This document shows positions 26,150 to 56,345 of a stretch of DNA of 64,000 nt, piece after piece. The notes under the pieces were generated by a model, which saw nothing but the letters and a program-made list of their open reading frames with translations, searched no databases and had not been told where the DNA came from. How positions within the stretch are numbered: position 1 is the first letter of the stretch; every line of letters begins with the position of its first letter. The translations under genes and the position numbers were made by a program. Source of the DNA: a virus. The stretch is from positions 15,837 through 79,836 of the IMG/VR virus record IMGVR_UViG_3300045988_052707. One strand, given 5' to 3'.

Positions 26150-27217
26150 CTAAACTAACTTATCGAATATCATGGGCTGTATCGACATCCATAGATTCGC
26201 TAGCATTTCTTGCTCTGCGTCAGATGCCTCATCCCAATGTGATACGTACAATTTCTCCGTTCGTTCATTCCTATAAGGAACTTTAAATGAACGGTTAATG
26301 CGTACACTGTGTGCGAATAGGTCTTTGTCGAAATCAATAGCCCTAAGCGTCTTCTGGAAATCGTTGAACTTATTATTAGGGTCATCGACATCCCTAACAG
26401 ACATTCCAGAAGGAAATGGGCCATTACCATGCCTTGTTATATAAGGACGAGTTACATAACAAGTTTGGATTTCTTTACGTATACCTGCTTTCCGCAACAG
26501 CTCGTAAGCGTTTTGTGAAGTTGTATTAGACGGAGTACAATAAGGCATTATGCCGAATCTTTGGTCAAGCAATATTCCCTGTGAACCTTCAAACACTAGG
26601 TTATCATAATTCAACAAGCAATCTTCATTAACCGTACCTGTATGTAAGAAATAAGCATGTGCTAACCTACACCAGTTGTCTAGGTCTATCGAAGGATATT
26701 TACTAGACATGTTGTAATAGTTATCCACTATGGCATTTAGTTTCTCACGCAGTATGTAAGGATTCATACAATCTACAACTGTTAAGCTGTATCCTGCCTT
26801 AACTCGGTCCAAACAAGCTTTAAACCCTGTACCTACAGTACCATGTCGTAAGTTCTCTTCGTTATTAACTTGGGAATAGACATCGAAGGGAATTACAACT
26901 TGGCAGTGAGGGTGATACTGAACAATGGGACGAACTCCCATTTTAGCTAAGTCTGCACCCTCTAACATAGAGGTAATTGGGTCTACAGTACAGTATTCGG
27001 ACCAATACGTCGGCACTCCAAGTAAGGTTCCGCTGCCAAAGTTACTAAAGGTGTGCATCATGTCTCCATGCTTTACAGTATGTCCTACTTGATGTCCACC
27101 ACTAAACCTGACTACTAACACAGACTCTCGCTTACCTATGTACTTGTTACATAAGTTGTGAACTGTCTGTCCCTTACCTTCGTCTCCAAAGAATGTTCCT
27201 AATACAATACTAATCAT
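26150..27217 (-). CDS. adenylosuccinate synthetase (PurA) family enzyme, short form; candidate PurZ-like (2-aminoadenine/Z-base pathway) enzyme
   Basis: N-terminal P-loop IVLGTFFGDEGKGQ (PurA GDEGKGK), VVRFSGGHQVGHT (PurA RYQGGHNAGHT), GTVGTGF, FEGSQGILLD...PSNTTS, TRHGNGPFP; only 355 aa and lacks the C-terminal guanine-specificity region of canonical PurA (about 430 aa). Confidence 0.6.
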   Translation of the reverse strand: MISIVLGTFFGDEGKGQTVHNLCNKYIGKRESVLVVRFSGGHQVGHTVKHGDMMHTFSNFGSGTLLGVPTYWSEYCTVDPITSMLEGADLAKMGVRPIVQYHPHCQVVIPFDVYSQVNNEENLRHGTVGTGFKACLDRVKAGYSLTVVDCMNPYILREKLNAIVDNYYNMSSKYPSIDLDNWCRLAHAYFLHTGTVNEDCLLNYDNLVFEGSQGILLDQRFGIMPYCTPSNTTSQNAYELLRKAGIRKEIQTCYVTRPYITRHGNGPFPSGMSVRDVDDPNNKFNDFQKTLRAIDFDKDLFAHSVRINRSFKVPYRNERTEKLYVSHWDEASDAEQEMLANLWMSIQPMIFDKLV

Positions 27218-38695: not shown

Positions 38696-38767
38696 TGCCC
38701 CATGTTGGACTCGAACCAACGCCATACAAGTTTAGAATTTGCTCTTCTACCACTGAAGTAATGGGGC
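38696..38767 (-). tRNA. suppressor-type tRNA, anticodon CTA (would decode amber UAG)
   Basis: Acceptor GCCCCAT/ATGGGGC, D-arm CTTC-AGTGGTA-GAAG, anticodon arm GCAAA-TTCTAAA-CTTGT (U33, A37; one A-C mismatch at loop-closing pair), T-arm GTTGG-TTCGAGT-CCAAC; 4 nt from the preceding CAT tRNA. Confidence 0.55.
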
Positions 38768-42779: not shown

Positions 42780-43160
42780 CTCTTTGTTTAAATTTATTGT
42801 TATGAGAGTCTTTCTTTATTCTAAACAATAAACAAGCGGCATTACGGCAATTGGACATGCGTTAATCCGCTCGCCACTTACAGACCGTAATGCACACTTG
42901 ACCAGGCAGGAAAGAGGTTTGCTTGGTGACCTATCTGCATGCTGATTATATAATGCAGACCGTGTAGATTCTCTCTTACACAATATCTATAGTAGATTTG
43001 CACTACTGTTTTCTGATGCTTAATCAGGCGAACTCTTACTGTTCGAATAGATACAGGTTTCAACTCTTTGATATAGCCTTTTAAGTCATAGACACACTCC
43101 GGAGTATGTCTACTGGTTCTTCAGACCAAGTTTTGCTACCACCATTCGTCAATAGTGGAT

Positions 43161-44650: not shown

Positions 44651-44694
44651 CCTTCATTTTAGTAATTCCAATTAAGCGTTAATAATAGTGGACC

Positions 44695-44725
44695 ATCGCG
44701 GACTCGAACCGCGGTCTTCACAACT
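44695..44725 (-). other. tRNA 3'-fragment (perfect T-arm CGCGG-TTCGAGT-CCGCG + acceptor 3' strand ATGGTCC-A) without detectable 5' half
   Basis: No complementary GGACCAT or D-arm within 400 nt upstream; lies at the 3' end of a ~900-nt ORF-poor, hairpin-rich region. Confidence 0.35.
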
Positions 44726-45334
44726 CTAAATAACAAGATTACGTGTGTCTCTATTTTATTACATCAGCTGTTGAGTTCAGCATGTAGATAGTTTTACTAA
44801 GAAGCTGAGTGTTAATTCACCAATTACGTCTCCTCGTAAGGCTACGACTTAGTTGTTCACAAACTACCAAACTGGGCTTGACCGAACGGTCGCTCCACCA
44901 CTCCATTTACGTTGGAGAACGTCTATTTGTAACCCATAGCTAGGTAGTGGAGATTTCAGCTTACTAACTCTTAGAGTGTTCTGTTAATGACGTTTGTCAA
45001 TCCTCTTCTGTTTCTAGGTCTCTCCAATTAACCCGACTTAATCAATATAAATACTGATAAGCCAGCAGCTTAGGCTGCCATTCTTACTTCAGTGTTTCCA
45101 CTTAAAATTGTGCATCATTATTAAAGAGTTGGTGCCAACTCTACACGTCTTGCTACCCAGTCATCATGAATCAATTCCATGTATGGCCCATAAATGGCAT
45201 GATTATACTCTCATGCCAGGAGTCATTATGAATTTTAAAAATTTAGGGAGCACAAAATCACCAGTATCCTCCTGTGCCACATTGAGTGGCGTACCCATTG
45301 AGGACTTAGTAACTTATGAGCTATTTTGTTCCAT

Positions 45335-49322: not shown

Positions 49323-49622
49323 TCAAACAATGGTTTTACATTTACGCACCTTTAAGATGAGTTCTTGGTCTTCAGGGTCTTTCTCTAACTGACGTTCCAG
49401 TCCTTTCATGTAATTGGAACGTTCATAGCTAGTAAGACTAAATCCTTGCCAGCTCTCCAGACACCATGCTACATAGAATGGATTAAAGTAACAGACGTCT
49501 TTCACTTTCTGATTCTTGTATTTGCCAATGTTAAAGAATCTCCACACGCTCATTCCTATAGCTGTGGTATATTTATTGTCAACTCTATGACAATCATCGT
49601 ATTTACTCATAACTATGTACAC
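49323..49622 (-). CDS. hypothetical protein
   Basis: 99-aa ORF. Confidence 0.45.
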   Translation of the reverse strand: MYIVMSKYDDCHRVDNKYTTAIGMSVWRFFNIGKYKNQKVKDVCYFNPFYVAWCLESWQGFSLTSYERSNYMKGLERQLEKDPEDQELILKVRKCKTIV

Positions 49623-50867: not shown

Positions 50868-51350
50868 TTATTCCTTGCAATATGCAATAACATTGACGTT
50901 CATTTGTGAACCGTCCCTTGCGACGCTTTCAAACGTTTCTATCGCCTTTGCGGTTACTTCCGTACCTTGTAAATCTGCAAGACATTCCGCTATTGTCTTA
51001 TTTTCAAACATATTGAAAATGCATTTGTCTTTGTCCGCCTCTGGGAGAATGTCAACCGGTGTAATACGCTTGTTGTTTTCACGGTCGTTGAAAGACCGGA
51101 ACAAAGAGTTTATAGATACGTTTCTTGCCACTCCATTGACCTCAACGGCAACTTGAAAGAACGTATTGCCATTTACAACGCCCTTTGTGATTGTTCCGTT
51201 AAATTCGTTAATTTCAGCGGGAAACTTCAATTTGTCGCCTACCTTGATAGAATCAGGATTCACACCTAAACGGTTTAAAGCCGCCGCAATTTCGTTTTTG
51301 CTTGCTTTCGGTAACTTCTTGTTAACTTCTTGTAATTCTGCTAAATTCAT
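50868..51350 (-). CDS. hypothetical protein; locally GC-richer gene
   Basis: 160-aa ORF; visibly higher G+C (many GCG/CCG/CGG codons) than flanking AT-rich genes. Confidence 0.5.
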   Translation of the reverse strand: MNLAELQEVNKKLPKASKNEIAAALNRLGVNPDSIKVGDKLKFPAEINEFNGTITKGVVNGNTFFQVAVEVNGVARNVSINSLFRSFNDRENNKRITPVDILPEADKDKCIFNMFENKTIAECLADLQGTEVTAKAIETFESVARDGSQMNVNVIAYCKE

Positions 51351-51589
51351 AGTTTAATAATTTATTAGTGAAACAATATAGAACGGACTTATTTGCCCGT
51401 TCTGATTAGCTTTTAAATTAGATTTGCTTTAATTTCTTCACATTCTTCACGTGTGATTATACAACGCGTAGCATTAACTAAAACATAACCGTTTGAAAGA
51501 TAAGTAAACATAACTCTAATAATTTTAAAATGAATATTATAAAGCAAAACCAAATGATATAAATCTTTTGATTTTCTCCAAACATGGGT

Positions 51590-51876
51590 GAGGGGTGTGA
51601 GGGGTAACACGACTGTCGTATCCGCAATATACACAAATCTTGCAATATTCACCCAGCATCCGAGTTGGCAATATATAATATGACAACCCACCCCGGGAGT
51701 GGGAGGGGTGTGATTTTGAGCACCCGTACTTGTAAGTTGGCAATATATATTAATTTCTATTCATCTTACTAATTGCAAGCAAGCCCCGAAGGGGCGCAGA
51801 TTGCCACAGCACGTCATGAAGTTCCGAGTTGGCAATATACTTAATATTAACTGTGAATTTGAGTTGGCAATATATA
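51590..51876 (+). promoter_or_regulatory. divergent regulatory hub: 4 direct copies of (G)AGTTGGCAATATA (51662, 51735, 51826, 51861) plus partial GCAATAT copies, G-tract runs and GC-rich hairpins
   Basis: Read directly; hairpins CACCCC-gggagtggga-GGGGTG (51690-51712) and GCCCC-gaa-GGGGC (51783-51795); G-tracts GGGTGAGGGGTGTGAGGGG (51592-51610). Confidence 0.6.
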
Positions 51877-51929
51877 ATATATATTAATAATTATATTACC
51901 ATTTGGTAATATTGAAATATATAACTAAT

Positions 51930-51962
51930 TTTGTATTGTCAAATTAAATAGTAATATATTTG
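51930..51962 (+). promoter_or_regulatory. Bacteroidetes-type promoter candidate (−33 TTTG, 21-nt spacer, −7 TATATTTG) upstream of plus-strand block
   Basis: ttTTTGtattgtcaaattaaatagtaaTATATTTGcgaac about 45 nt upstream of ATG at 52007. Confidence 0.4.
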
Positions 51963-52006
51963 CGAACTTAAATCGCAGAATTTAATAACAATTAAAATTT
52001 ATAACA

Positions 52007-52261
52007 ATGGCTAAAGAAGTTAAAGACTTAACAAGTAAAGAAGTAGATGAAGTAAAAATATTAAAGACTAGTTTGTCAGAATGTCCAGTAAATACTGATT
52101 TAGGATGTAATGAATCAAAGGCAACTAACTGGGTGAAGTTAGACAATAAAACAACAGATGTAAAATTAGAATTATTAAATAAATTGCAAGACGGACTAGC
52201 TAATGGAGCTGGTATTGAATATTTAATGCAACTATCTTGCATTTATAATAACATTCGCTAA
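52007..52261 (+). CDS. hypothetical small protein (first gene of plus-strand cassette)
   Basis: 84-aa ORF. Confidence 0.5.
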   Translation: MAKEVKDLTSKEVDEVKILKTSLSECPVNTDLGCNESKATNWVKLDNKTTDVKLELLNKLQDGLANGAGIEYLMQLSCIYNNIR

Positions 52262-52263
52262 TA

Positions 52264-52638
52264 ATGAGACATATTGATAGAATTAATAAGCAGTATGAAG
52301 AGAAGGAAGTTAAATTGCTATACGATAAAGCTGTAGCATTAATGAATCTTCTTAGTGATGAGGAATATGAACAAGTAATTACAGATAATGCAGATATATT
52401 TAAATTAGCATCTCATCCCGAGAAGGGTGAGTTCTATTTGCAAGATAAGCACAACTTAGTCCAGATTGTAGATATATTTAGTAAATTTATCAAAACTAAA
52501 GGTCTATCTAAGGACGAATTTAAAATAATGACTCTAGATGAAGTTAAAGAGTATATGGTTGATGTTATTAATGATATCACATCATTCGAACCAGATGAGC
52601 TATTCACGATAGTAAAGAACTTAGAGAAACTTCAATGA
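52264..52638 (+). CDS. hypothetical protein
   Basis: 124-aa ORF starting 2 nt after previous stop. Confidence 0.5.
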   Translation: MRHIDRINKQYEEKEVKLLYDKAVALMNLLSDEEYEQVITDNADIFKLASHPEKGEFYLQDKHNLVQIVDIFSKFIKTKGLSKDEFKIMTLDEVKEYMVDVINDITSFEPDELFTIVKNLEKLQ

Positions 52639-52946
52639 AACTAGAACAGATACCAGGTGATTATGATAATGTAGACCAGAGAGCTCTAGAATTATTAGAG
52701 ACTAATGACTATAAATTAGCAGAGTATATGAGGGACTATATAAAGGAATTATATGCTAACATACATATGAGAGACTTCTATATTAGAAACCTTAAGGATG
52801 AAATACTTCATACACTCAAACATAGAGACTCTATAAGTGGTGAGGAGCTACTACAAATACTAAATAAGGTAGCTCCATGGGATATGGAATATGATGGCAG
52901 ATGGCAAACTAGAGACTATTTAGCAAGAGCAAAGGCTAATCAATGA
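52635..52946 (+). CDS. hypothetical protein
   Basis: 103-aa ORF, ATGA start/stop overlap. Confidence 0.5.
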   Translation: MKLEQIPGDYDNVDQRALELLETNDYKLAEYMRDYIKELYANIHMRDFYIRNLKDEILHTLKHRDSISGEELLQILNKVAPWDMEYDGRWQTRDYLARAKANQ

Positions 52947-53016
52947 TAACACAAGAAGTAGAATTAGTAGAAGAAGCATTATATAGGAATGCGTACATAT
53001 ATCCAGGCTGGAAGTA

Positions 53017-53286
53017 TTGCCTACCTGGATTACTAAAGACAATATATTTATGACAGGAGAAGAAATTATAGTAACATTTAAAGAGCCTTGGTATAATGAT
53101 TATACCAGACGATTATACACTCAATTATCTGAACAAATGATTAGAGAAGAGATTGAGAGAGTGCGTAAAGAACCAATCATTACTAATACTGCATTTGATA
53201 TAGCAGTAGACAAGGCTTTCTTAGAGTTACTGCATGACAACAAGGATTTAATTAATATTACAGAACGATACAAGAACCATGAGTAA
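53017..53286 (+). CDS. hypothetical protein
   Basis: 89-aa ORF. Confidence 0.5.
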   Translation: MPTWITKDNIFMTGEEIIVTFKEPWYNDYTRRLYTQLSEQMIREEIERVRKEPIITNTAFDIAVDKAFLELLHDNKDLINITERYKNHE

Positions 53287-53925
53287 AATAGCAACAGAAT
53301 TAGAAGCTAAGACTATGGGGGGGGGACTCTCTCGGTAATTGATAATAAGTGCTGTACTAAAGCTAGAGCACTTGAATTAGGATGTCAGATTAAAAGTGGA
53401 TTTAGTTATACTGATAATCAGTTAGTAGAGTTAGAAGGTATAGAGGCAGCTATAACTGCTCCAAATGTAATCCTTCATTATGGTTGGCAGGATATGCCAA
53501 TTAATAATATACAGCAATTTAGAGTACGTTTCTCATTTGTTAATGAGAGTTCAGTGAATGGAGAGCCGTTTAAGTATTCTGATAATACTACTTACTTTAC
53601 AATTACTCCAAGATTAGAGCAGGGAGAACAAACATATACTAAAACTCTGGCAAATCCTCTTAAATATTACTTAGAGAAACTAGCACTTCCTAACCAAGAC
53701 CCATATAATACACCTGTTTGGATACGTTTTGAGGGATATATGATGCTTAGGCAAGTGTCTCAAATTACATTAGCAGTAGATTCTCAATCTGAGAATTGGG
53801 CAGAAGGAGTAACATTCCCTTCATCTGGAAGGTGGGTCAAAATGAATAATTCTGGTAGAGTATTTAGATTTACTGGTGGGGAAATAGACCTAAACATAGA
53901 ACTGTATACAGCGTCAGCGCAATGA
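53279..53925 (+). CDS. hypothetical protein interrupted by a G9 tract (53317-53325): N-terminal MSKIATELEAKTMGGG in one frame, remaining ~200 aa in the -1 frame
   Basis: ATG at 53279 overlaps previous stop (ATGAGTAA); frame of ORF 53494..53925 is open and protein-like back to the G-run (DYGGGTLSVIDNKCCTKARALELGCQIKSGF...) with no start codon; one extra G would fuse the frames. Confidence 0.45.
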
Positions 53926-54119
53926 TTAAAGTAACTGATAATAAAGAAGTAAAGGAAACAGTCCTAGCAGGACTTAAAAGGAATAAAGAGAAGTATGGTA
54001 AGAAGTATTGTCCATGCTCTTTAGTAAGAGATGAAGATACAGTATGTATGTGTAAAGAGTTTAGGGAAATGGAAGAAGGGACTTGCCATTGCCAACTTTA
54101 TGTTAAAACTAAAGACTAA
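53922..54119 (+). CDS. small Cys4 zinc-binding protein
   Basis: CPCSLVRDEDTVCMC...CHCQ. Confidence 0.45.
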   Translation: MIKVTDNKEVKETVLAGLKRNKEKYGKKYCPCSLVRDEDTVCMCKEFREMEEGTCHCQLYVKTKD

Positions 54120-54125
54120 TAATTA

Positions 54126-54284
54126 TGGATGAATTAAAGAACCAATTAGCACAGTATTTATGTAGCCAAATTCATAATGGTACTAAAGATTTGATTGAAT
54201 TAATTGAATCGGAAGACCTTATTAATGAACAGTGGTATAAGAACTGGAAGGAAGAGATGAGAATCTTACTACAGGAGAAGTAAT
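54126..54284 (+). CDS. small hypothetical protein (not in ORF track)
   Basis: MDELKNQLAQYLCSQIHNGTKDLIELIESEDLINEQWYKNWKEEMRILLQEK. Confidence 0.35.
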
Positions 54285-54285
54285 T

Positions 54286-54525
54286 ATGATAATACTTAGT
54301 GGAAATTGTCCTAGGCATCATAATGCCATTATGTTGGAACTTACAGACTTTGACGACAGTAAAATTTCCTATCTAGCTAGAATATCTAGAGGACATCATG
54401 TTGACACTCTATTAGTTCCGAGAGAATATAAAGATACATTTGAATCTACAGAACTACACAAGATGTTGCTACCTAATATTAGCATAGGTGATATACAATT
54501 TGCTAAAATATATTATTATGATTGA
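54286..54525 (+). CDS. hypothetical protein
   Basis: 79-aa ORF. Confidence 0.45.
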   Translation: MIILSGNCPRHHNAIMLELTDFDDSKISYLARISRGHHVDTLLVPREYKDTFESTELHKMLLPNISIGDIQFAKIYYYD

Positions 54526-54748
54526 TGTTAGAAGGACATTAGAGAATTTACATCAGATACTTCCAAACTTATCAATAGAGGACTTATTTAGAGTTCTTGA
54601 TAATATAGTAGAAGTTCCACAATTCAACATAGGACAGACAACTACTATACGTAGAGATGATAGTGGCTGGAGACCATATGATCCAGGTACATTTATATCT
54701 TATGCTAGTAATGGAATAACACTTAGTGATGAAGGAACTTGTAAATAA
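54488..54748 (+). CDS. hypothetical protein
   Basis: 86-aa ORF overlapping previous by 38 nt. Confidence 0.4.
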   Translation: MIYNLLKYIIMIDVRRTLENLHQILPNLSIEDLFRVLDNIVEVPQFNIGQTTTIRRDDSGWRPYDPGTFISYASNGITLSDEGTCK

Positions 54749-54935
54749 CTGGAATGAGAAGCATCCCGAATACGTATTGGTACACGGGATGTATTCTTAT
54801 GTAGACAATGGACAATCTAAGGATATGCACATGCTTACTATCTTTAATAAGGATAATGAATGTGTATGTGAATATAAAGGAGAAGATTTTATTAAATTAT
54901 ATAATACATTAGAAGAAGAATGGGAAGATGCTTAA
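54726..54935 (+). CDS. hypothetical protein
   Basis: 69-aa ORF. Confidence 0.4.
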   Translation: MMKELVNNWNEKHPEYVLVHGMYSYVDNGQSKDMHMLTIFNKDNECVCEYKGEDFIKLYNTLEEEWEDA

Positions 54936-54959
54936 TGTTAATATAATAGTAAGTGAATT

Positions 54960-55245
54960 ATGGAGAATAAATTAAACGTACCAAAGCTGGAATATAAAAC
55001 AGGAGAGCCTATGTGGGTTCATTGGGATAATAGATACGTATTGCGTGGAGGACATATACTAGGAAAATGCCCCAGATGAGAATTTGATAACCACAGTGGG
55101 CTACTTGGCATATATGGACGACAAATCAATAATATTGGGAAGAGGTATTGAGAATCATTGTGATGAGGACGGTACTCGCAGAGTAAAAGATACAATACAC
55201 ATACCAATGAGCTTAGTAGCTAGTTTTGGAAGTTTTGATTGATGA
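54960..55245 (+). CDS. small gene(s) split across two frames (MENKLNVPKLEYKTGEPMWVHWDNRYVLRGGHILGKCPR* then ...MDDKSIILGRGIENHCDEDGTRRVKDTIHIPMSLVASFGSFD*)
   Basis: Two ~40-aa plus-strand ORFs in adjacent frames not reported in ORF track; junction at gaaaatgccccagatga. Confidence 0.3.
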
Positions 55246-55248
55246 ACT

Positions 55249-56103
55249 ATGACAAATGAGGAGTATAATAAATGGCTAATCCTTTACTTTGATATGCAAT
55301 CTATAAACTTACAGTTCAATTGTAATGATATAGCATCATCACTAAAGGCACAAAGAGATAAGATAAAACAATTCTGTATTGACTGTCTAACAGGAGTAAA
55401 ACATCAGGCTGACAGCTTTCTATTTGACACAAATGCTTGCATATTCTCTACTTCTGAAACTAGAGAGCTATTGTTCTCGCATGAAGAATATCTCATTCTT
55501 GAGGCTGATACTACTAAAGTAGTTGACGGAAAGTATCCCTTAGACTACGCTAATGAAATAGTAGAATCTAATTTGGACACTATTATTGACTATATAGTAC
55601 AGTCAGGAACAGAAACATACAATGATAGAACCAGTAGAGGATTTGGGAATAGGTGGAGTCCTTATAATGAGGAGGAACGTAAACAAGTAATTAAACTGTT
55701 TAACTCTGGAACTTGGTATGATACACTTGGGTCCTTAAAGCATTTATATTATGAAAGAACCCCCAAAGGTTTAAGAATGTGTAACCTGACTGGCAAACCC
55801 TTACAAGCCAATGTTCTAGAACATATAGAAGATATTATTTTAAATATAAAAGACCGTTATGAAACATTTGCCGTTGTTCCTAGAGGTAAATCTAAATTAC
55901 AAGTTTATATGACAATTAGCAATGGAACAAATGGGGCTGAAGGATGTATTATTAATTCTATGGAAGATGTTCTAAATGTGCTTAAAAACTTAAGGAAATG
56001 CAAAGGAGTAACTTGGTCACAGCTACTGGAAGTTGGGATAGATAATGCAGATGATTTATATTGGTGGTATGTAACATTCTCAATAGACACAACAGCTATA
56101 TGA
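55249..56103 (+). CDS. hypothetical protein (284 aa)
   Basis: Largest ORF of plus-strand cassette. Confidence 0.55.
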   Translation: MTNEEYNKWLILYFDMQSINLQFNCNDIASSLKAQRDKIKQFCIDCLTGVKHQADSFLFDTNACIFSTSETRELLFSHEEYLILEADTTKVVDGKYPLDYANEIVESNLDTIIDYIVQSGTETYNDRTSRGFGNRWSPYNEEERKQVIKLFNSGTWYDTLGSLKHLYYERTPKGLRMCNLTGKPLQANVLEHIEDIILNIKDRYETFAVVPRGKSKLQVYMTISNGTNGAEGCIINSMEDVLNVLKNLRKCKGVTWSQLLEVGIDNADDLYWWYVTFSIDTTAI

Positions 56104-56345
56104 CTAATGAACAATTAAATCAATACTATAGTAAGGATGCAGATAAGAAGCAGTGTTGGGTAAGTAAAGACCATAACTGTCCATTAAAGGAACAATGTAA
56201 TGGACTTGTTAAGCCAGAATGTAAAGAGCATATAGACAATGAAGACGCCTGCCATGCTATTGATAAGATGATAGAATGGTATTACCAAGTAGAAGAACCT
56301 GAATTTCTAAAGTTCTATAATTGTCACTTAGAGATGATTAAGTAA
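56061..56345 (+). CDS. Cys-rich small protein
   Basis: CWVSKDHNCPLKEQCNGLVKPECKEH...DACH. Confidence 0.45.
   Translation: MVVCNILNRHNSYMTNEQLNQYYSKDADKKQCWVSKDHNCPLKEQCNGLVKPECKEHIDNEDACHAIDKMIEWYYQVEEPEFLKFYNCHLEMIK

Follow-up and report, generated by a model that had tools for sequence, protein, structure and literature searches.

Iteron-type replication origins with an autoregulatory inverted repeat are known from pSC101 (RS1-3 and IR1-2), mini-F (ori2 and the repE operator), and pPS10. Phage operators are also organized in arrays, as in OR and OL of lambda, the p4 sites of phi29 between A2b/A2c and A3, and the asymmetric C1 operators of P1. The origin of lactococcal phage c2 is a non-coding region between divergent gene clusters, and it needs a non-coding transcript driven by a promoter. 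In the PeSL elements of the T4 type, an early promoter and stem-loop repeats flank exchangeable small genes.

The locus described here, called the hub, is a 494-nt intergenic gap (51513-52006) in a 64-kb stretch of phage DNA, which is referred to as the window and provides the numbering. The gap extends from the ATG of a minus-strand 32-aa ORF at 51512 to the ATG of a plus-strand gene at 52007. It is positioned where the minus-strand and plus-strand gene blocks diverge, and an earlier reading of the sequence without database searches (the sequence-only reading) had placed it there correctly.

Like the origins of pSC101, mini-F, and pPS10, the hub contains three to four direct repeats, an adjoining AT-rich region, and an inverted repeat of half-sites over the downstream promoter. 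However, the repeats of those origins follow each other in phase about every 22 bp, whereas the spacing in the hub is irregular. Furthermore, the hub has GC-rich stem-loops between the repeats and lacks a DnaA box, its downstream gene encodes 84 aa without a Rep-like fold, and the number of repeat copies drops to one in sister lineages. With the arrays of lambda, phi29, and P1, the hub shares clustered short sites between divergent promoters, one of them over a core promoter element, at a (nearly) unique locus. In contrast to the closely spaced dyads of those arrays, the hub sites are mostly direct repeats distributed over 250 nt, no HTH or RHH regulator is detectable beside them, and the hub promoters are of the Bacteroidota TTTG/TAnnTTTG type. 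The likeness to the origin of phage c2, which can serve as a lead only, is that of a non-coding, repeat-rich, and AT-rich region between divergent blocks with evidence of a folded strand; the two share no sequence similarity, and the hub is known from its sequence alone. The repeat-plus-hairpin units of the hub (R1-H1 and R2-H2), and a gene cassette that is present or absent exactly at one unit, resemble the PeSLs of T4. However, PeSLs are dispersed through hyperplastic regions and have host-type promoters, whereas the hub repeat is limited to a single locus and deviates from the host consensus.

The ~186-kb phages that carry the hub are common in human-gut metagenomes; the cluster of one neighbouring protein comprises 3,480 sequences. 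No relative of these phages has been cultured, and their early genes are ORFans almost throughout. As a control region, the hub is mapped precisely and conserved very strongly, with a promoter footprint, a covarying stem-loop, and a unique motif of 14 nt. It offers a convenient starting point for finding an early regulator or an origin, and for constructing reporters and vectors for Bacteroidota hosts. The kind of element is familiar, and known biology is not overturned.

Genome context and lineages carrying the hub

The window comes from a ~186-kb human-gut phage, with about two thirds of the genome located outside it. Related contigs, which reach 181-190 kb, come from human-gut metagenomes, and deposited phages gave zero nucleotide matches to the window. 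The window encodes 30 tRNA genes, including one of amber-suppressor type, together with a tmRNA, a RAGATH-34 RNA, and helicase, clamp-loader-like, and PurZ-like genes. DnaB-like and other helicases and the clamp-loader-like ATPase are encoded in the leftward block. The plus-strand block is short and covers 4.3 kb (52007-56345).

Shine-Dalgarno-like motifs are depleted upstream of the window genes (3.7% versus 10.8% background), and A is enriched at positions -3 and -13/-14. Shine-Dalgarno depletion with A enrichment at such positions is the pattern described for Bacteroidetes. The promoter consensus of Bacteroidota is -33 TTTG / -7 TAnnTTTG (PMC7366714). The lack of Shine-Dalgarno sites at the genes and the TTTG/TAnnTTTG form of the promoters make a host from the Bacteroidota probable. 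A search of GTDB genomes for the host returned three matches, all of them unrelated coding tandem repeats.

Four lineages carry the hub: the type of the window (W), L177, L398/L393, and L178-L193. Lineage W comprises ~85 contigs, some of which have the gene cassette. The first plus-strand protein is 47% identical to that of W in L177 and about 34% identical in L178-L193. In the hub, islands with a GC content of 0.61-0.63 alternate with AT-rich segments of 0.15-0.26, compared with about 0.36 for the genome, which agrees with the earlier impression of conspicuous GC-rich elements in AT-rich DNA.

A repeat array confined to one locus

The sequence AGTTGGCAATATA is present in four exact copies, all on the plus strand (51663-75, 51735-47, 51827-39, and 51862-74), as the sequence-only reading had reported. 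The copies belong to repeats R1 to R4:

51662..51675, plus strand: R1, GAGTTGGCAATATA; missing where the endonuclease cassette is present
51734..51747, plus strand: R2, AAGTTGGCAATATA; begins with GAGTT in most relatives
51826..51839, plus strand: R3, GAGTTGGCAATATA; the most widely conserved copy, perfect in W, L177, and L398
51861..51874, plus strand: R4, GAGTTGGCAATATA; 35 nt after R3, lost in L398

Three of the window copies start with GAGTT and the second with AAGTT. Each repeat ends in an AT-rich TATA(T/A)A stretch, and all copies face the plus-strand operon. The start-to-start spacing is 72/92/35 in W, instead of the previously given 73/91/35, and 108/124/35 in L177; it is irregular and out of helical phase. 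Two partial GCAATAT copies are present at 51624-30 and 51642-48, as had been noticed before.

A scan of the 64-kb window for AGTTGGCAATATA with zero or one mismatch identified no copies beyond the four. Five matches with two mismatches are located elsewhere in the window, which is about chance (nine in all versus 3.26 expected). In a complete 15-mer scan of the relatives, exact copies were found at the hub locus only (family contigs of 93-147 kb; L177, 185 kb), and the variant motif of the L178 lineage, GAGTTCACCTATAT, occurs once per contig among the matches listed. The 9-mer TGGYAATAT, which the sequence-only reading had overlooked, is present six times in the window versus 1.83 expected. 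All six sites are inside the hub, within 250 nt, and they correspond to R1-R4 and the two arms of the palindrome described below. The array was found in all ~85 related contigs that were recovered. The clustering and conservation of the repeats are far beyond chance. Literature searches for the repeat motif returned unrelated primers only.

The number of copies differs among the genomes. There are four perfect copies in W, and three together with one diverged copy in the cassette-bearing genomes. Of the copies in L177, three are perfect, one is near-perfect, and three have decayed; in L398, R3 is perfect and the others have decayed; and L178 has a single variant. A promoter-proximal copy is kept in every lineage, and the distal copies turn over. 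Such turnover of sites between lineages is typical of transcription-factor site clusters.

Conservation of the hub and cassette exchange

The non-coding blocks of the hub are 93-100% identical at the nucleotide level, versus 77-85% for the flanking genes. The block 51517-51610 reaches 98-100% identity, versus 77-82% for the genes that flank it. The nucleotide diversity is 0.01-0.03 in the hub versus 0.05-0.18 in the adjoining sequence. Among 18 variants of W (~85 contigs), the segment from R3 to the -7 box of the rightward promoter is essentially invariant, with two single-base exceptions, and most of the variation falls in the leader downstream of the -7 box. Judged from the related contigs, this conservation makes the repeats a more robust finding than the view of a single sequence allowed.

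One part of the hub is exchangeable:

51611..51685, plus strand: replaceable segment, which carries both partial GCAATAT copies and R1

In L154, L156, and L160, the segment is swapped for a cassette of ~1.07 kb. The cassette gene encodes 289-296 aa with an HTH and an HNH/EndoVII-like endonuclease. The cassette also carries a perfect TTTG-N20-TATCTTTG promoter and a diverged R-like sequence, GAGTTCGGGATATA. A third allele of the segment, which is 35 nt longer, is present in L149. A conserved ORF cannot span the gap, given the 35-nt indel in L149 and the presence or absence of a gene-sized segment, and the description of the stretch as non-coding therefore stands for the whole interval 51513-52006. 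Two minus-strand ORFs of 68 and 92 aa were considered and rejected as repeat artefacts: they are broken by the 35-nt indel and are not conserved in L177.

A promoter at fixed distances from the proximal repeats

The hub contains a rightward promoter, a candidate leftward promoter, and a palindrome, and it is followed by the first gene of the plus-strand block:

51902..51933, plus strand: P+, rightward host-type promoter with -33 TTTG at 51902-05, a 20-nt spacer, and -7 TAATTTTG at 51926-33
51549..51582, minus strand: P-, candidate leftward host-type promoter with -33 TTTG, a 19-nt spacer, and the -7-like sequence TATCATTTG
51893..51912, no strand assigned: perfect 20-bp palindrome, ATATTACCA-TT-TGGTAATAT, with 9+9 arms; overlaps the -33 TTTG of P+
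52007..52261, plus strand: first gene of the rightward block; its 84-aa product is a regulator candidate solely because of its position

P+ is one of four full-consensus matches on the plus strand of the window. It has the organization of a Bacteroidota sigma-A promoter, with TAnnTTTG preceded by TTTG about 19-21 nt upstream, ahead of a gene. A second match, TATATTTG at 51955-62, overlaps P+. The -7 box is TAATTTTG or TAAATTTG in W, TAACTTTG in L177 and L398, and TATCTTTG in L178. The promoter is thus footprinted across four lineages: only the 'nn' positions of TAnnTTTG vary. The distance from the -7 box to the ATG of the first plus-strand gene is 81 nt in W, L177, and L398.

The TTTG of P- is the reverse complement of 51579-82, and its TATCATTTG is the reverse complement of 51551-59 and one base longer than TAnnTTTG. 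In L398, the homologue of P- is a perfect TTTG-N18-TATCTTTG. P- is a candidate leftward promoter, presumably weaker than P+.

The promoter-proximal repeats keep their distances from P+ and the gene start. Wherever R3 is present, it is located at -181/-182 from the ATG and precedes the -7 box by 100-101 nt, and W and L177 share an R3-to-ATG span of 195 nt even though the sequence within it has undergone substitutions. R4 is 146 nt upstream of the ATG in each lineage that retains it. It precedes the -7 box by about 62-65 nt (62 from core to box) in W and L177, in which the intervening sequence differs. The single R-like motif of L178 is positioned 61 nt upstream of the -7 box of that lineage. 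R1 and R2 are 200-270 nt away from P+.

Each arm of the palindrome is the repeat core TGGCAATAT with one mismatch. The palindrome is invariant in lineage W and is not kept as a palindrome in L177, L398, and L178.

Stem-loops and the G-tract block

The GC-rich islands contain a G-tract block and two sets of stem-loops:

51586..51604, plus strand: G-tract block GGGTGAGGGGTGTGAGGGG; three G-runs, so not a canonical four-run quadruplex
51687..51725, plus strand: H1, two adjacent GC-rich stem-loops, H1a and H1b
51687-91 with 51699-703, plus strand: H1a, CCCAC paired with GTGGG; pairs invariant
51706-10 with 51721-25, plus strand: H1b, GGGTG paired with CACCC; the loop is the T-run TGATTTTGAG
51775..51804, plus strand: H2, two-helix stem-loop with outer helix GCAA 51775-78/TTGC 51801-04 and inner helix GCCCC 51783-87/GGGGC 51791-95

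The G-tracts and the two GC-rich hairpins of the sequence-only reading were thus recovered; the hairpins are CACCCC...GGGGTG at 51689-51710 and GCCCCgaaGGGGC at 51783-95. The G-tract block is kept in W, L177, and L398, and a G-rich counterpart is present in L178.

The sequence of H1 is conserved in all four lineages. H1 of W can be drawn alternatively with a CACCCC/GGGGTG stem followed by TGATTTTG. The terminal pair of H1b is GC in three variants, AU in one, GU in one, and unpaired in one, and the covariation of H1 is not significant (299 of 500 shuffles). The T-run of H1, which is also the loop of the alternative hairpin H1b, is missing in L149 and L398, which leaves an intrinsic terminator at H1 uncertain; H1 was not flagged in a terminator scan of the hub.

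In H2, 100% of the cells pair across eight distinct variants. There are two compensatory exchanges, A-U to G-C in the outer helix and C-G to U-A in the inner helix, and one U.G, which pairs on the plus strand only. The score of H2 was reached by just two of 500 shuffles. The triloop at 51788-90 has the form G-N-A (GAA, GCA, or GTA). The pairing pattern implies that H2 is a folded single strand, of either RNA or ssDNA. If only P- and P+ fire, the H2 stretch would be untranscribed, and a pure operator model would leave H2 unexplained.

A structured RNA spanning the whole hub was considered and dropped. A scan of the hub with the covariance models of Rfam 15 gave no match at gathering score and chance-level matches only at E<=10, and the fold z-scores of either strand were -0.2 to -0.7, which is not significant and indicates no overall RNA structure.

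Possible functions of the repeat array

The likeliest reading, still a tentative one, is that a sequence-specific regulator of early transcription binds the repeats. Regulator-binding sites were one of three candidates that the sequence-only reading listed with no preference among them, and they gain support from the fixed distances to the footprinted P+ and from the palindrome over its -33 box. The uniqueness of the repeats, their constraint, the fixed distance to P+, the palindromic pair, and the turnover of the distal copies together fit a single sequence-specific factor. Multiple sites are present at the promoter, as in an operator array; the inverted pair over the -33 box is found in lineage W only. 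We infer from this arrangement that a protein binds the sites, and its identity and the direction of regulation are likewise part of the model.

According to the regulator model, the hub would control divergent early transcription, and the host RNA polymerase would start rightward at P+ (TTTG-N20-TAATTTTG), 81 nt before the first gene, and leftward probably at the weaker promoter near 51550-51580. The sequence GAGTTGGCAATATA, with the core TGGCAATAT, would be the recognition site of one DNA-binding factor, most likely encoded by the phage. The factor may occupy up to six sites: R1-R4, which face the rightward operon, and the inverted pair across the -33 box of P+. The promoter-proximal R3 and R4 would be functionally coupled sites. 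Once bound, the factor may determine when or how strongly the early genes are transcribed, through shut-off, autoregulation, or activation. The GC-rich H1 and H2 between the sites would be separate conserved elements that fold on the plus strand. Several observations speak against a regulator array: R1 and R2 are far from P+, the spacings are out of helical phase, the palindrome is specific to W, and no DNA-binding protein was recognised among the flanking ORFs. In addition, H2 implies a folded plus strand in otherwise silent DNA, which keeps alive both an origin and repeats that act through promoters and leader RNA.

It is possible, although rather unlikely, that the hub is a replication origin, in which R1-R4 would be iterons for a phage initiator and the AT-rich 140 nt after them the unwinding element:

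51868..52007, no strand assigned: least stable and most AT-rich duplex of the 64-kb window; GC 0.14; just after R4

No other segment is less stable when windows of 40, 80, or 140 nt are compared; at 80 nt the stability is -76.5, versus a mean of -100.5 (sd 5.4). The iteron-type origin proposed by the sequence-only reading is therefore supported in one respect, namely that the direct repeats adjoin the global duplex-stability minimum of the 64 kb, as expected of an AT-rich unwinding element. However, the same segment contains P+ and the AT-rich mRNA leader, and its composition is already explained by a conserved promoter with an AT-rich leader of fixed length to the ATG. The palindrome, an inverted repeat of iteron-like half-sites over the downstream promoter, may serve for autoregulation of the initiator, and the hairpins and G-tracts for priming or an R-loop. 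The conserved plus-strand structure of H2 with its G-N-A triloop would also suit an origin, as would the presence of one such locus per genome, at a divergence of transcription next to a leftward block with helicases and a clamp-loader-like ATPase. Other observations weaken the iteron proposal. Iterons are three or more direct repeats of about 17-22 bp in regular, helically phased spacing; the four hub repeats are not spaced in this way (72/92/35 in W and 108/124/35 in L177), and the perfect copies are down to one in L398 and L178, in which the rest of the hub is kept. R1 is dispensable in the cassette-bearing genomes. Searches of the flanking ORFs by family, PDB sequence, and fold identified no recognisable initiator next to the repeats, although an ORFan may fill this role. 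The DnaA box TTATCCACA, with up to one mismatch, a common but not universal component of such origins, is absent from 51400-52100, and its matches over the window are below chance.

GC skew had been suggested as a means of locating an origin. The skew flips at 51.5 kb and back at 56.5 kb, which are both of the coding-strand switches. The minimum at the hub mirrors the coding strand, and because both inflections coincide with its changes, the skew is uninformative on replication and was discarded as evidence for an origin. The readings are partly compatible, since an origin could be transcription-activated. Of the possible functions, a regulator array and an origin are the likeliest; the repeats themselves are real and the element is of a familiar kind.

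It is improbable that the repeats are tandem phage-specific promoters, from each of which a phage polymerase or a re-targeted host polymerase would fire rightward to produce structured leader or small RNAs. The combination of R and hairpin would then resemble promoter/stem-loop cassettes or antitermination signals of the boxA/boxB kind. All of the repeats face the plus-strand operon and end in TATA(T/A)A, and rightward transcription would explain the plus-strand pairing of H2, and weakly that of H1b, including G.U. Where R1 is missing, the cassette with its own promoter fills the same slot upstream of H1. However, L398 loses R4 and keeps P+, and neither the fold z-scores nor Rfam provide a signal of overall RNA structure.

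The sequence-only reading had listed a phage-polymerase promoter array. A general promoter class, such as the dispersed T7-like promoters of a phage RNA polymerase, in which one motif of 17-23 nt precedes many transcription units, is excluded by the confinement of the motif to one locus in the window and in the relatives' contigs of 93-185 kb. The motif is not found upstream of many genes, a distribution that had been named as telling against a specific role of the array and that would also have marked a generic promoter. K-mer searches of the window's intergenic regions for a dispersed promoter motif found AT-rich pre-start sequence only, and the ORFs scanned in the 64-kb window, which is part of the genome, included neither a recognisable phage RNA polymerase nor a sigma factor. 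R was also tried and rejected as a sigma-70, sigma-54, or Bacteroidota -33/-7 promoter: with R as either element, the partner box is not consistent. The lone exception is TGAATTTG, a -7 sequence with one mismatch at 51853-60, 21 nt past R3.

Equally doubtful is an element coupled to transcription that would have no described counterpart in Bacteroidota phages. In the form of a transcript-opened origin, rightward transcripts started at the repeats may fold into the G-N-A-triloop and G-rich hairpins and prime or open the AT-rich DNA. In the form of a nut-like leader, R may be the linear box and H1 and H2 the hairpin boxes, so that early transcription resists termination.

Terminase and centromere sites are likewise unique arrays of short repeats. 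A pac/cos-type terminase array, a partition centromere for the nearby ParB-like protein, or scars of endonuclease-driven cassette exchange are nevertheless very improbable here. In their favour, many metagenome contigs stop 12-130 nt upstream of the first plus-strand gene, a protein that appears ParB-like by eye is encoded nearby, and the hub is a hotspot of cassette polymorphism, but the contig ends scatter over ~120 nt of low-complexity AT instead of one base, as fits assembly breaks, the hub is internal and at arbitrary positions in long contigs (a physical genome end at the hub was rejected on these two grounds), the ParB-like protein has no family assignment, and scars would not stay invariant at fixed promoter distances across lineages.

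Genes flanking the hub

The ORFs that adjoin the hub are ORFans, and the hub-flanking ORFs have no match in Pfam, PHROG, NCBIfam, or PDB. No HTH or RHH regulator was detected near the repeats. The 84-aa protein has a conserved N-terminus and a C-terminal two-helix hairpin, and its residues 14-41 are hypervariable. Its structure model consists of a disordered N-terminus and the two-helix hairpin, with no strand. The protein has no family match and no significant fold match, and it was rejected as a ribbon-helix-helix autoregulator on the basis of the two-helix model and the lack of a fold match.

The 268-aa protein encoded 2.7 kb away is ParB/Srx-like by eye, and its single tool match is phrog_5931, a family of unknown function.

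On the minus strand, the hub is followed by a short leader module:

51380..51512, minus strand: leftward leader module, a 32-aa ORF (51413-51512) and then a stem-loop (51380-51403)

The module is positioned upstream of a gene for 160 aa (50868-51350). An OB-fold or SSB-like assignment of the 160-aa protein was rejected: the model is of low confidence, and the weak matches, with a TM of about 0.2, are meaningless. At least three alleles of the 32-aa ORF exist, which differ strongly from each other, and L398 lacks the ORF. At two positions of the hairpin at 51380-51403, which was flagged as terminator-like, G-C is exchanged for A-T and the pairing is preserved.

Variation of the hub among related phages

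The segment 51611-51685 of the hub, the non-coding gap between the leftward and rightward gene blocks, contains the direct repeat R1. In three loci from relatives (L154, positions 1610-2672; L156; and L160), this segment is swapped for a ~1.07-kb cassette with a perfect promoter, TTTG-N20-TATCTTTG, and a gene for a predicted protein of 289-296 aa combining an HTH with an HNH/EndoVII-like (homing-type) endonuclease. A third allele of the segment, in locus L149, is longer by 35 nt. The cassette is a presence/absence polymorphism among the relatives.

In the hub of the distant lineage L178, the place where the window lineage carries partial repeat copies is occupied by a palindrome, which is flanked by more TTGCAAT-type motifs:

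L178 2263-2285, perfect 16-bp palindrome GCAATTCGCGAATTGC

Hubs of the window type and of the L178 type occur ~190 kb apart on each of the contigs ERZ827512.8 (316,849 bp) and ERZ857922.2 (337,704 bp), as the paired loci L357/L365 and L331/L377. Both contigs are probably two related phages joined by chimeric or concatenated assembly.

A motif look-alike, GTTGGCAATATA, in a Tannerellaceae MAG (L401, 5800-6030) was rejected as a relative of the phage motif. It belongs to a tandem repeat with a unit of ~27 nt that reads as a coding KYVGNIF/KYVGGIL repeat, and the resemblance is therefore attributed to chance.

Genes flanking the hub

In three lineages, metagenome contigs, about 16 of them independent (loci L314-L376), stop 12-130 nt upstream of the first rightward gene. 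Because their ends, which map to window positions ~51877-51995, are spread out and share no single base, they are most likely assembly breaks in AT low-complexity sequence.

The 84-aa first early protein (52007-52261, plus strand) is 63-99% identical among relatives. The N-terminus MAKEVK is invariant and the C-terminal two-helix hairpin is conserved; residues 14-41 are hypervariable.

The leftward block begins with a module upstream of the 160-aa gene:

51380-51512, minus strand, 32-aa ORF followed by a stem-loop

The ORF has at least three alleles, strongly diverged from one another, and G-C to A-T exchanges in the stem-loop maintain the pairing. In its position ahead of the 160-aa gene, the module resembles a leader peptide and its attenuator; all of it is missing from lineage L398.

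Other genes in the window

Two proteins with Pfam matches stand among the ORFans of the window:

53922-54119, plus strand, small ferredoxin-thioredoxin-reductase-beta-like protein (PF02943, E 1.5e-13)
49323-49622, minus strand, ExoX-like C-terminal motif protein (PF20600, E 2e-6)

With an E-value of 2e-46, the ORF 26150-27217 (minus strand) hits phrog_1211, the family of PurZ-type adenylosuccinate synthetases, a hint of 2-aminoadenine in the phage genome.

RNA genes elsewhere in the window include:

38695-38767, minus strand, tRNA with anticodon CTA (amber-suppressor type), one of 30 tRNA genes
43050-43158, minus strand, RAGATH-34 RNA
44686-45189, minus strand, tmRNA

TAG recoding in the late genes is possible.
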